DNA from: Pirellulales bacterium | Lineage (GTDB): Bacteria; Planctomycetota; Planctomycetia; Pirellulales; JALHPA01 | Direction: 5' to 3' | DNA: 64,000 nucleotides | Assembly: GCA_041736895.1 (NCBI GenBank) | Contig: JBGSSS010000062.1 | Coordinates: 8,558 to 72,557, forward strand | Part shown: piece after piece, positions 9,725 through 37,526 of the stretch | Numbering within the stretch: the first letter of the stretch is position 1 | How the letters are laid out: each line of letters starts with the position of its first letter | Position numbers and translations under genes: made by a program | Notes under the pieces: generated by a model | What the model was told of the DNA's origin: nothing | Seen by the model: only the letters and a program-made list of their open reading frames with translations | Databases searched by the model: none

Positions 9725-9869
9725 GATTGATATTGGCGATTCACTTTTTGGAATGACGATCTTCTGAAATCATAGCAAATCTTCTTGGCTAGCTTTGCGT
9801 ATCTTCTATGCCGCTCTGAATTTCATCCGCCTCTGCGTGTTTCGCATTTGCATTTACATGAGATATCAA

Positions 9870-9923
9870 ACAAAAAACCGTGCTGGGCTCTTACGAAACC
9901 CAGCACGGCCCAAACACCCTGCG
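9870..9923 (-). terminator. Intrinsic terminator plus conserved 3' segment, copy 1
   Basis: CCGTGCTGGG/CCCAGCACGG 10-bp stem with T-run on - strand; near-identical copy at 10908-10962. Confidence 0.85.
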
Positions 9924-9933
9924 CTTGATATTC

Positions 9934-10653
9934 CTAGAAGCCGAAGAAATCTCCGACGGCACTGGCTGCACCGCCTACCGCGTTGCCCACGCCGTGGACC
10001 ACGTTGCTGACCGTTCTGCCGGCGGCATCCACGGTGCGAACCACGGTTCTGCCCGCGGAGTCGACAGTCCTGATCACGGTTCTGCCTGCGGCGTCAACGG
10101 TGCGCACCACATTCTTGCCCACGGTTTGCACCCCGCGGCCGACTGTGTTCACCCCTTTGCCGACCGCATTGAGCACATCTTTCGCGCCAGGCCCAACGCC
10201 ATATACCGTGTTGTCTACCGAACGGCGCGGACGCGGTGAAGACGTGACCGTGACGCCGCCTGGGACATCAGAGCTCACGATGCGATGATCGCGGACGACG
10301 GGAGCAGTCTTGGAGTAAACCGGCGGGACTTTGTAACCCGAGCCGCTGTTGCTGGTCACTGTCCGATGATCGCGAACGACAACGTTGCTGCTGCCGTTGA
10401 CGGCGTAGGGAGTCTTGGTGCGGTGATCGCGCACGATCGGTCCGGTCGTCGGAGCCGCGACGGTTGGCTTGCGATGATCACGGATGACAGGCCCAGCGAG
10501 ATTTTGAGTGGTCGTGGTTTTGCGGTGGTCCCGAATCACGGGTCCGGTCTCGGTTTTCTTGGAGCGATAGTCGCGAACCGTGGGTTCCGCGGCGAAAGCG
10601 GACGAAGTAATGCTGAGCAAAGTCAGAACGGCAAAAGACAAAAGGCGATTCAT
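9934..10653 (-). CDS. Secreted RDHR-repeat protein, paralogue 1
   Basis: Signal peptide ending SAFA; six RD[HY]R motifs; three 11-mer V[VI]RTVD[AS]AGRT repeats; AGGA RBS. Confidence 0.8.
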   Translation of the reverse strand: MNRLLSFAVLTLLSITSSAFAAEPTVRDYRSKKTETGPVIRDHRKTTTTQNLAGPVIRDHRKPTVAAPTTGPIVRDHRTKTPYAVNGSSNVVVRDHRTVTSNSGSGYKVPPVYSKTAPVVRDHRIVSSDVPGGVTVTSSPRPRRSVDNTVYGVGPGAKDVLNAVGKGVNTVGRGVQTVGKNVVRTVDAAGRTVIRTVDSAGRTVVRTVDAAGRTVSNVVHGVGNAVGGAASAVGDFFGF

Positions 10654-10704
10654 GTATGAAGAATCCTGGGAAGGAGATAGAGGTAACGTTGAAAAGAGTT
10701 AAGA

Positions 10705-10776
10705 ACAACTCAGTAACTCTATTTCCAGCCAGCGTCCTTCATACGGTTTTGTTACATCACGCTGTTGTTACGAAAA
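10705..10776 (-). promoter_or_regulatory. Conserved upstream regulatory block of RDHR paralogue 1
   Basis: Six conserved blocks align without gaps (offset 1204) to 11909-11980. Confidence 0.7.
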
Positions 10777-10907
10777 AGCTGGAAATTCCGTAGGCAATTC
10801 CCAGCTCAATTTTGAAGAACACGAGCGGAAGATGTTTGTGTTGAGCTAGCGGATGCTCCGCGATGCAAGAGCTTGCCATCAGTAGGTTGGATCGTATTTG
10901 CACTCGT

Positions 10908-10962
10908 ACAAAAAAACCGTGCTGGGTTCTTACGAAACCCAGCACGGCCCAAACACCCTGCG
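10908..10962 (-). terminator. Intrinsic terminator plus conserved 3' segment, copy 2
   Basis: Same hairpin and flanking CCCAAACACCCTGCG as 9870-9923. Confidence 0.85.
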
Positions 10963-10979
10963 TTTGCTAGATTGTTCAA

Positions 10980-11861
10980 CTAGCGATTGCGGTGGTCGAC
11001 GACTTGCGGACGGGTCGGAGCACCCGAAGTCACGCTGCCATAGCCGATGCCAAAGGCATTCCCCACCGAAGTCAGGCCGTTGCTCGCTGCATCGACCACG
11101 GTATGCAGACCAGGTCCGGTCCCGTAGATCGTGTTGTCGGCCGAGGCCGAACCGTTGCCGCGATGATCACGGACAACAGGGCTCGTCGTTTGGCTAAAGC
11201 TCGGCCACTTGTAATTCGCGGCGGCGCTTGACGGGACACGATGATCCCGCACCACGGGCGGCGTTCCCCGCGGGGAAAGCTGCGGAGCGACCGCGACACG
11301 CGAATCAACGATTTTCGGCCTGCCGCTATGGCCAGTCTGCTGCGTGACCATCACACCACCGGACATCTTGCTAACGTCAGGCTTGCCATAGTACGGATAC
11401 CGCCCATAGCCGCTTTGGTCGCGATGGTCTCGGACAACGGGACCGCTGCCAGTCATCGGCGTGAAACGTTGGTCCTTGGCACCGTGACTGACCAGGTCTT
11501 GGCTTGTCAGGGTTTTCCGTGGATCACGGGGTGGAGTCTGGGGACTCATCGAGTGCGTGAGGGGAACCTGCGGCTTGTTGACGGCCGGGGCACGTTGGAC
11601 GATGCCGTTAACGTTGACATACCCACCGCCAGACTGTTTCCCCAGGCCCGGGTTCACAAGCTTGGGTTGCTGTTTGCTTTGCCCGCTCGAAGTGCGGTGA
11701 TCGCGAACGACGGGAGCGAGATTGGGTGTGCGATGATCGCGAACGATCGGTTGCTGCTTGTTCGATTGATTCTGGGGCTTGTGTTTGTTGTTTTTGTCGG
11801 CAAACGCCGAGGAAGACAAAGCAAGCAACGTAAGCGAGGCAAAAATAAAAAGGCGTTTCAT
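10980..11861 (-). CDS. Secreted RDHR-repeat protein, paralogue 2 (293 aa; start ATG 11861)
   Basis: Signal peptide MKRLFIFASLTLLALSSSAFA; five [IV]VRDHR plus degenerate copies; shares DNT[VI]YG[VT]GPG and GGV[TM]VT with paralogue 1. Confidence 0.8.
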   Translation of the reverse strand: MKRLFIFASLTLLALSSSAFADKNNKHKPQNQSNKQQPIVRDHRTPNLAPVVRDHRTSSGQSKQQPKLVNPGLGKQSGGGYVNVNGIVQRAPAVNKPQVPLTHSMSPQTPPRDPRKTLTSQDLVSHGAKDQRFTPMTGSGPVVRDHRDQSGYGRYPYYGKPDVSKMSGGVMVTQQTGHSGRPKIVDSRVAVAPQLSPRGTPPVVRDHRVPSSAAANYKWPSFSQTTSPVVRDHRGNGSASADNTIYGTGPGLHTVVDAASNGLTSVGNAFGIGYGSVTSGAPTRPQVVDHRNR

Positions 11862-11908
11862 CGTAGAAATCCTAGGGAGAAAGTGCTGGCAGTAGAGCAA
11901 GTTGCAGC

Positions 11909-11980
11909 ACAACTTTGTAACTCTGTTGTGAGCCAGCGTCCTTTCCACAGAAGTGTTACAAAACGCTTTTGTTACAGAAA
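11909..11980 (-). promoter_or_regulatory. Conserved upstream regulatory block of RDHR paralogue 2
   Basis: GTAACA direct repeat, AAGGACGCTGGCT and AGAGTTAC at the same spacing as in copy 1. Confidence 0.7.
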
Positions 11981-12009
11981 ATCTCCCCTTTTTATTGAGG
12001 GCAAAGCAC

Positions 12010-36695: not shown

Positions 36696-37526
36696 ATGGA
36701 GGAGCCGATGGCAACAGTGATCGCCGAAACAGCACCGCCCGCATCGACAGCCGCAGAAATTGCCGCTCAAGAAATCCTGCAAGTCTGGCATGCCTTCAAA
36801 GCGGATATGAACAATCAAGATCTGCGCAACCGGCTCGTCGAGCGGTATCTGCCGCTGGTCAAGTACAACGGCGAACGGATCTGGTCGCGGCTCCCCGAGG
36901 GAGTGGAACTCGACGACCTCATCTCGGCCGGGATCTTCGGTCTGATGGACGCCATCGACGCTTTCGATTTGTCACGCGGCGTCAAGTTCGAGACCTACTG
37001 CGTGCCGCGTATTCGCGGGGCGATGCTCGACGAACTCCGGACAATGGACTGGGTTCCGCGCCTCGTTCGGTCGAAAGCCAGCAAGCTCAACGAAGCATAC
37101 AAGTCGCTCGAAGTCCGCCTCGGCCGCGCCCCGACCGAACTCGAGTTGGCCGAACGCATGGAATTAAGCGTTCCCGAAGTCGAAAAACTGATCCTCGACG
37201 CCAGCGCGGTCAACCTGATCAGTCTGAACAAGAAATGGTACGAAACGGACAGCTACAAGGATGTCCGCGAAATCGATATTCTCGAAGACAAAAAGGGCGA
37301 AGACCCGACCCGCCGCATTCAGAAGAACGACCTGATGCGTCTGGTGACCAAGGGCCTGAATCGCAACGAACGGCTCATCATCATTCTCTATTACTATGAA
37401 GAGCTGACGATGAAAGAAATCGGCGCAACGCTCGATCTGAGCGAAAGCCGCGTGAGCCAGATGCACAGCTCGATCATGCAGCGCTTGCAGCAACAACTCG
37501 GCCGCCGCCGGCCGGAATTTGCCTAA
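36696..37526 (+). CDS. fliA: RNA polymerase sigma factor FliA/WhiG
   Basis: DDLISAGIFGLMDAI, FETYCVPRIRGAMLDELR, DWVPR, LTMKEIGATLDLSESRVSQMH. Confidence 0.95.
   Translation: MEEPMATVIAETAPPASTAAEIAAQEILQVWHAFKADMNNQDLRNRLVERYLPLVKYNGERIWSRLPEGVELDDLISAGIFGLMDAIDAFDLSRGVKFETYCVPRIRGAMLDELRTMDWVPRLVRSKASKLNEAYKSLEVRLGRAPTELELAERMELSVPEVEKLILDASAVNLISLNKKWYETDSYKDVREIDILEDKKGEDPTRRIQKNDLMRLVTKGLNRNERLIIILYYYEELTMKEIGATLDLSESRVSQMHSSIMQRLQQQLGRRRPEFA

Follow-up and report, generated by a model that had tools for sequence, protein, structure and literature searches.

What function could hold a six-residue motif almost letter-perfect in exported proteins whose remaining sequence varies freely is the question raised by two adjacent genes of a Pirellulales bacterium (Planctomycetota; GenBank assembly GCA_041736895.1, contig JBGSSS010000062.1). 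The genes lie in tandem within the 64,000-nucleotide (nt) stretch of DNA analyzed here (hereafter, the window), and their open reading frames (ORFs) translate into P0001 (gene 1, 9934..10653; 239 amino acids, aa) and P0002 (gene 2, 10980..11861; 293 aa), each with a signal peptide and five copies of the motif [VI][VI]RDHR. Both genes, and all features of the pair located below, are on the minus strand. The two proteins belong to a family that is real, undescribed and unusually constrained, and they are read here, tentatively and by analogy, as multivalent arrays of a short linear motif that would bind a universal ligand of the cell envelope.

The motif and its protein family

The Sec-type signal peptides of P0001 (MNRLLSFAVLTLLSITSSAFA, 10591..10653) and P0002 (MKRLFIFASLTLLALSSSAFA, 11799..11861) both span residues 1–21 and end in SSAFA, and residues 3–18 of the former are helical in an AlphaFold2 model. 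In P0001 the signal peptide is followed by a region modeled as disordered that holds a TVRDYR variant and the five [VI][VI]RDHR copies (array at residues 24–124, 10282..10584), a GGVTVTSSPRPR block, a DNTVYGVGPG block and a Gly/Val-rich C-terminal part whose last residues are GDFFGF. In P0002 the five copies are accompanied by degenerate PRDPR, AKDQR and IVDSR versions and by GGVMVT and DNTIYGTGPG blocks, and the chain ends in PQVVDHRNR. The two sequences are related (BLASTP E = 7e-08) mainly through the signal peptide and the surroundings of the motifs. The initial annotation, made from the DNA letters, had described a co-oriented tandem pair of exported motif-repeat proteins, with these same motif counts (the terminal VVDHR of P0002 included), with shared YK[VW]P..PVVRDHR, GGV[TM]VT and DNT[VI]YG[VT]GPG blocks, and without a recognizable named family, all of which is borne out, as is its picture of a constant motif set among variable spacers; the signal peptides that it called near-identical are similar, sharing 14 of 21 residues by manual count.

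The repetition is not a product of chance composition. The tetrapeptide RDHR occurs 264 times in the 7,638,548 residues of the six-frame ORFs of this 5.9-Mb genome, from which about 0.02 occurrences would be expected in the 532 residues of the two proteins, against ten observed. Two or more RDHR are found in six ORFs of the genome, and an array with V, I, L or T before RDHR exclusively in P0001 and P0002 (five each). The copies are encoded by differing synonymous codons and are therefore conserved at the protein level, rather than being a recent DNA repeat.

Counted over 60 members of the family, which come from four phyla, exact copies of [VI][VI]RDHR number 289, and copies with a single substitution in RDHR number four. 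A set of 34 family proteins, with 244 RDHR copies, defines the context (G/P/A)-P-[VI]-[VI]-R-D-H-R-(T/D)-(P), with V or I in 225 of 227 copies at position -1 and in 210 of 227 at position -2, and P in 164 of 227 at position -3. The gap between copies has a median of 8 residues and ranges from 4 to 179 in the same set, and the spacers of P0002, P0003 and P0022 are unlike one another, the motif alone being kept. Broad alignments yielded no stretch conserved enough for a locus search, and a DNA pattern scan and a three-sequence alignment were used instead. An accessory GG[VT]xV[TS] block, represented by GGVTVT in P0001 and GGVMVT in P0002, accompanies the motif in 33 of the 60 proteins, and a signal-peptide-like N-terminus is present in 49 by a crude heuristic, most of the remainder being fragments. 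To stay so invariant over several phyla, while the spacers are free to vary, is characteristic of short linear motifs that a single fixed partner recognizes.

The predicted structure of P0001, obtained from an alignment of ten sequences with a mean predicted local distance difference test score (pLDDT) of 53, leaves the motif region disordered. Most of residues 25–126 fall below a pLDDT of 50, and the motif region has no strands; the model has two short helices, which are followed at residues 181–220 (9994..10113) by four beta strands with a pLDDT of about 77, made of repeats 11 residues long (RTVxRTVDxAG). Regular beta structure of an amyloid or beta-solenoid type was not predicted in the motif region of P0001, the strands lying exclusively at 181–220, outside the array.

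Membership in the family was defined as at least three [VI][VI]RDHR copies in an exported, low-complexity protein, and both P0001 and P0002 qualify. Searches of P0001 and P0002 against Pfam and NCBIfam returned sub-threshold noise only, sequence searches of the PDB with P0001 and P0008 returned nothing meaningful, the best score in the ESM Atlas (0.82) was below the useful range, and a full-text literature search found no relevant paper on a VRDHR-type motif or an RDHR repeat. Relatives were nevertheless recovered from large protein collections: a word-seeded search of 5.8 billion proteins found 19, and phmmer, run exhaustively on 1.84 billion cluster representatives, found 21 proteins at E <= 0.001, the query included. 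All of these are low-complexity proteins with the same motif, most of them with a signal peptide, and the similarity is reciprocal (19 other such proteins in the first search, 20 in the second).

The family is thinly distributed. It was matched in two of 41 related genomes, the genome of the window being one of the two. The coding pattern was matched in five of 401 Planctomycetota genomes (zero for the reversed control) and in three after two discards: the match in G269 is an antisense frame and was dropped as spurious, and that in G062 (C75, about 64.4 kb; L125) is a non-coding look-alike, a 31-nt tandem DNA repeat with stops in the motif frame. When one genome per species was scanned with a DNA pattern, at least 120 loci came up. 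Most of the 120 listed are Arg-rich alternative frames of GC-rich genomes, four (L029, L058, L060 and L075) were dropped as spurious frames or fragments, and 23 were accepted as true members after translation. Among the matches listed, ten of the 23 belong to the Alphaproteobacteria (Bradyrhizobium, Microvirga, Hoeflea, Hyphomicrobiaceae, Xanthobacteraceae, Phyllobacteriaceae and two unclassified metagenome-assembled genomes, MAGs), 12 to the Kofleriaceae and other "delta-proteobacterial" MAGs of Myxococcota-type lineages, and one to the Acidobacteriota; together with the Planctomycetota, all phyla holding members among these matches are double-membraned. A metagenome scan added 15 loci, 12 of them with ORFs of three or more copies. 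The VRDHR-repeat family is thus rare, without description, and patchily but widely spread over double-membraned bacteria.

In this distribution the array behaves as a module. In a Bradyrhizobium ORF (L021) it is the entire mature protein, a signal peptide followed by four motif copies and nothing else, and in a secreted planctomycete protein (G333:C39, about 221.2–224.5 kb; L127) it is expanded into 24 near-identical tandem units of 11 residues, EPVVRDHRDRR. Elsewhere it forms the C-terminal tail of an unnamed Tyr/Trp-rich lipoprotein domain (L010, L107, L162–L164, L168 and L173), in which a sequence of the type DYDEPVFYxDNYYWRY..GxWYRS precedes the VVRDHR tail and for which a Pfam scan of L162 and L168 gave no match. 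In other family proteins the array is fused to DUF3455, to DUF6600 or to WXXGXW repeats, and two long proteins that have no Pfam match contain it as a linker. The company that the genes keep is not conserved: among 98 neighbor ORFs at 24 family loci compared with Pfam, no family appears in more than three (ABC_tran and PDDEXK_1, in three each), and neither a protease nor an exporter nor a tailoring enzyme (radical-SAM or other) recurs.

Transcription units and a shared promoter-like element

A terminator-like hairpin with a T-run, 59 nt long, lies directly 3' of gene 1 (9872..9930), and a 95% identical copy lies 3' of gene 2 (10911..10969); these are the only two copies in the genome. Upstream, each gene is preceded by a 79-nt block (10702–10780 for gene 1 and 11906–11984 for gene 2), the two being 75% identical and found nowhere else in the genome. 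Since each gene has its own upstream block and its own terminator, the pair looks like two transcription units and not an operon.

Within the upstream blocks, the element TGTAACA-N13-GACGCT ends 77 nt before the start codon of gene 1 (10731..10756) and 73 nt before that of gene 2 (11935..11960). The genome contains 14 sites of the form TGTAACA-N12-14-GACGCT, against zero for each of the controls (element reversed, halves swapped, spacings of 8–11 and spacings of 15–18); TGTAACA by itself occurs 155 times. Ten of the 14 sites have a start codon 64–79 nt downstream, and all ten products are signal-peptide or membrane proteins: P0001, P0002, the His-rich GHWERERAP-repeat proteins P0035 and P0036, a QYPQYP-repeat protein, three small secreted proteins (one of them Gly/Ser/Tyr-rich), a small membrane protein and a Peripla_BP_6 lipoprotein. 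Sites with one mismatch number 15, versus four and four in two controls, and three of the 15 precede signal-peptide ORFs, versus none in the controls. The four sites without an ORF (C37:18540-18565(-), C54:11178-11203(+), C54:5115-5140(-) and C183:30513-30538(+)) are followed by hairpins with T-runs and could represent small RNAs under the same control; an Rfam search of the four gave no match at gathering level.

[quoted passage not shown] ECF promoters, as described in the promoter passages of PMC3426412, carry "AAC" at -35 and "CGT" at -10, the ECF41 promoter being TGTCACA-n16-CGTC, and the element at hand is likewise in two parts, the upstream half containing AAC and the downstream one, about 16 nt away, CG(N)T, and it is placed before envelope-protein genes. 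It differs from ECF promoters in its -10 half, GACGCT, in having no linked sigma/anti-sigma pair and in its control-level frequency in relatives. The assignment is weakened on several counts, for the -10 half reads CGCT and not CGT(C), no sigma gene stands behind any of the 14 sites, the genome's 38 Sigma70_r2 matches yielded no cognate, and a search upstream of family relatives in other organisms did not turn the element up. It has zero sites in both genomes of the same genus and at most one in each of the other 22 relatives, which is the control level, and P0036 has no convincing relative in these 24 genomes; both the element and the set of secreted low-complexity proteins behind it thus look specific to this lineage. 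A Sigma70_r2 gene of ECF size (a 286-aa open frame) lies at about 36834–37052 of the window on the plus strand, 25 kb from the pair.

P0035 and P0036 are themselves adjacent secreted proteins (C79:7433-8161(+) and C79:6036-6800(+) of the same genome; L147:2934-3662 and 1537-2301), each behind its own copy of the element. Both combine His-rich tracts, an LDPGKGDGK block and PGFxWV..GHWERERAP repeats, and these blocks occur fused to VRDHR arrays in the planctomycete proteins P0005, P0011, P0018, P0025 and P0028.

The wider surroundings of the pair consist of genes for an Amidohydro_2 protein (amidohydrolase), a DUF3467 protein, RfbA/RfbC, a 1,056-aa TPR protein, an EF-hand protein and a DUF1559 protein, the last of which identifies the host as a planctomycete. 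Just downstream of gene 1, at 9809–9855, lies a short repeat of about 47 nt, of which other contigs of this genome carry at least 12 more copies. Many metagenome contigs break or pile up at the repeat, which may be a hairpin repeat of the repetitive extragenic palindrome (REP) type. Four DNA sequencing runs carry the stretch, all of them metagenomes from one hot-spring study, and their contigs show no variants.

Candidate functions of the array

On the view that P0001 and P0002 are envelope proteins, exported and for the most part disordered, the short linear motif itself would carry their function, with a working form of (G/P)-P-[VI]-[VI]-R-D-H-R-(T/D)-(P) present in five to six copies between fast-evolving Pro/Thr/Ser/Gly spacers. 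The array would then act as a binding or retention module in which each copy is weak and many copies hold by avidity. The absence of a co-inherited partner gene, the patchy but wide distribution over double-membraned bacteria and the letter-perfect conservation of the motif point to a universal ligand already present in every host, and the candidates are accordingly chemicals common to all double-membraned bacteria: an envelope polymer or anion, such as the peptidoglycan stem peptide, lipopolysaccharide (LPS) or phosphate groups, or a small ligand. In the organism at hand the two units seem to be activated in concert with further exported proteins of low complexity, by way of the ECF-sigma-like promoter. 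A multivalent binding repeat had been listed as an alternative in the initial annotation, and it fits the evidence better than the peptide precursor preferred there; it is the reading to which the present analysis leans, short of confidence.

Several considerations weigh against this proposal. The argument for a putative ligand proceeds from anatomy and analogy, and the invariance of R, D, H and R would equally suit a metal site or an enzyme recognition site. The restriction to double-membraned bacteria derives from the DNA pattern scan and holds among the 120 loci listed. Among the sequencing runs listed, none carrying the stretch is an RNA run, all being DNA, which bears on expression. Lastly, the tie to Trp-rich partners can be read too generously: WXXGXW-type motifs occur in 12 of the 60 family proteins, the background in this genome being 112 of 11,358 ORFs (about 1%), but the 12 overstate independence, the members of about four WXXGXW groups being related, and the Pfam model PF12779 matches only two of the 60.

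An extended version of the envelope-binding proposal can be formulated, in which [VI][VI]RDHR arrays are a new, portable six-residue envelope-targeting signal of double-membraned bacteria that holds unrelated exported proteins on a universal ligand of the periplasm or outer membrane (for instance the peptidoglycan stem peptide or LPS phosphates, possibly via a bound metal) and that is deployed here with Trp-rich partners under a lineage-specific, ECF-type regulon of secreted disordered proteins. This version is speculative and, taken as a whole, doubtful. A natural VRDHR-WXXGXW fusion (L069), modeled from a three-sequence alignment, gave an uninformative mean pLDDT of 31.5, and the predicted complex of P0036 (residues 168–255) with P0001 (residues 22–135) scored 0.00, without a verdict.

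The invariance of His and Asp, with 289 exact against four variant copies, is also what would be expected if the His and Asp of the RDHR copies jointly chelated Cu, Ni or Zn in the periplasm, the protein serving as a buffer or metallochaperone, much as the octarepeats of the prion protein, with one His each, bind metal. A metal is moreover a universal ligand and would fit the lack of a conserved partner gene, and additional histidines are found in the right company: His-rich tracts near the N-terminus occur in five of the 34 proteins, L170 begins HGHGGHGGHGG, and the His-rich proteins behind the same promoter element carry HGNGHGNGHG (P0036) and HDHKKHDKDCHDCHDGHCH (P0035). However, both Arg residues are as invariant as His and Asp, and positive charges are not expected beside a cation site. 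Outside the motif, His is not enriched (92 of 6,817 residues, 1.35%), the other 29 of the 34 proteins have no His tract, and no metal-resistance or transport family recurs among the 98 neighbor ORFs. Metal binding as the function of the array is regarded as unlikely.

A structural role would instead make P0001 and P0002 self-assembling proteins of an envelope or extracellular matrix, with Arg-rich "stickers" that pair with Trp/Tyr-rich co-regulated proteins, or associate as beta strands, to form a gel, coat or fiber. The same promoter element does precede exported Tyr/Trp/Gly-rich low-complexity proteins (with QYPQYP repeats, GGWGG and GHWERERAP), other lineages have VRDHR arrays fused to WXXGXW-type repeats, and the C-terminus of P0001 is modeled as a small beta meander of 11-residue repeats. 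Generic sticker chemistry, on the other hand, would not need four invariant residues, the spacing of 4 to 179 residues is ill-suited to a regular fiber, and the motif region is modeled as disordered, neither solenoid nor cross-beta, which makes a self-assembling matrix a distinctly unlikely explanation. The amyloid-forming protein suggested as an alternative in the initial annotation finds no support in that same disordered model.

The reading that the initial annotation preferred, a multi-core peptide precursor in which each RDHR, as an R-x-x-R site, would be cut by a protease, periplasmic or secreted, with release of short peptides, draws its best support from the C-termini, since the protein ends exactly at RDHR in 12 of the 34 proteins and within two residues of it in 17 (26 of 60 in the larger set), just as the last unit of the yeast alpha-factor precursor ends at the stop codon. 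RDHR also fits the minimal R-x-x-R protease pattern, a Sec-type signal peptide ending in AFA is present, one relative carries the 24 tandem EPVVRDHRDRR units, and one ORF of this genome has a kexin-type P_proprotein domain. That ORF is a 698-aa open frame (domain at C53:12223-12468(-)), about 5 kb from a member of the putative regulon at C53:17208-17657. Such a domain is found, though, in one of the four genomes with true family members, and no protease, tailoring enzyme or exporter recurs beside the family genes. The conserved element is, furthermore, the supposed cleavage site itself; the stretches between sites vary among close relatives while the site does not, so no conserved product is apparent, and to our knowledge protease sites are rarely invariant at six positions. 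Because no neighboring gene family is conserved, and because the arrays are also joined to unrelated secreted domains (folded domains, lipoproteins and Trp-rich repeats, or the domains that they link within long proteins), a multi-core precursor is not favored and must be considered the least probable of the explanations weighed here.

A six-residue motif that is nearly letter-perfect over four phyla points to a very specific recognition event. Little is understood of the disordered proteins that bacteria export, and not many short linear motifs have been described for their envelope. Should the array turn out to serve as a tag for anchoring or for ligand binding, many hypothetical proteins could be annotated with its help, the widespread WXXGXW repeat proteins included, and it might be used as a small tag to display proteins on the envelope. 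The promoter element common to the two genes, for its part, offers a testable handle on co-regulated secreted proteins of low complexity, in a phylum where the biology of the envelope has been little explored.

Comparison with known systems

Each of the explanations above has a recognizable counterpart, and the VRDHR array departs from each of them. With the Kex2-processed repeat proteins of fungi and the yeast alpha-factor it shares a signal peptide and many short constant elements, each unit closing with a basic residue; in those precursors, unlike here, the constant element is not the putative site, and the family has no dibasic KR and no linked processing genes, its arrays often residing on other domains. 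With the prion octarepeats and with Asr, a His-rich disordered protein of the E. coli periplasm, it shares an exported disordered chain, one His per short repeat and a Pro before the motif, but there is no sequence relation, the invariant Arg-Asp-His-Arg quartet is not known from those repeats, and metal binding by the array is hypothetical.

The WXXGXW repeat proteins (PF12779) are similar in kind. They are likewise exported or lipoproteins, of low complexity, from double-membraned hosts and of unknown function, and VRDHR arrays are fused to WXXGXW-type repeats in at least four architectures; in this genome, two proteins with the WXXGXW-like GHWERERAP repeat share the promoter element of P0001 and P0002. 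Unlike that family, P0001 and P0002 contain no WXXGXW repeat and do not match PF12779 even at E values up to 10, unlike the relatives L092 and L170, and VRDHR is not part of the PF12779 model. The WXXGXW repeat family reportedly includes the BcpO-related lipoproteins of the Burkholderia bcpAIOB loci, and BcpO was all that turned up among the papers listed, in which WXXGXW, YXWGXW and PF12779 go unmentioned.

For the envelope-binding array proposed here, the closest functional parallels are choline-binding repeats and the GW, SLH and LysM modules, which attach proteins to the cell envelope without covalent bonds. They too are present in multiple copies, sit at the termini of unrelated passenger domains and have no dedicated partner gene, their ligand being a wall polymer. 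Those modules are folded units of 20–60 residues, found mostly in single-membraned bacteria. The VRDHR array differs in being a linear motif of 6–8 residues in a disordered chain, with a putative ligand.

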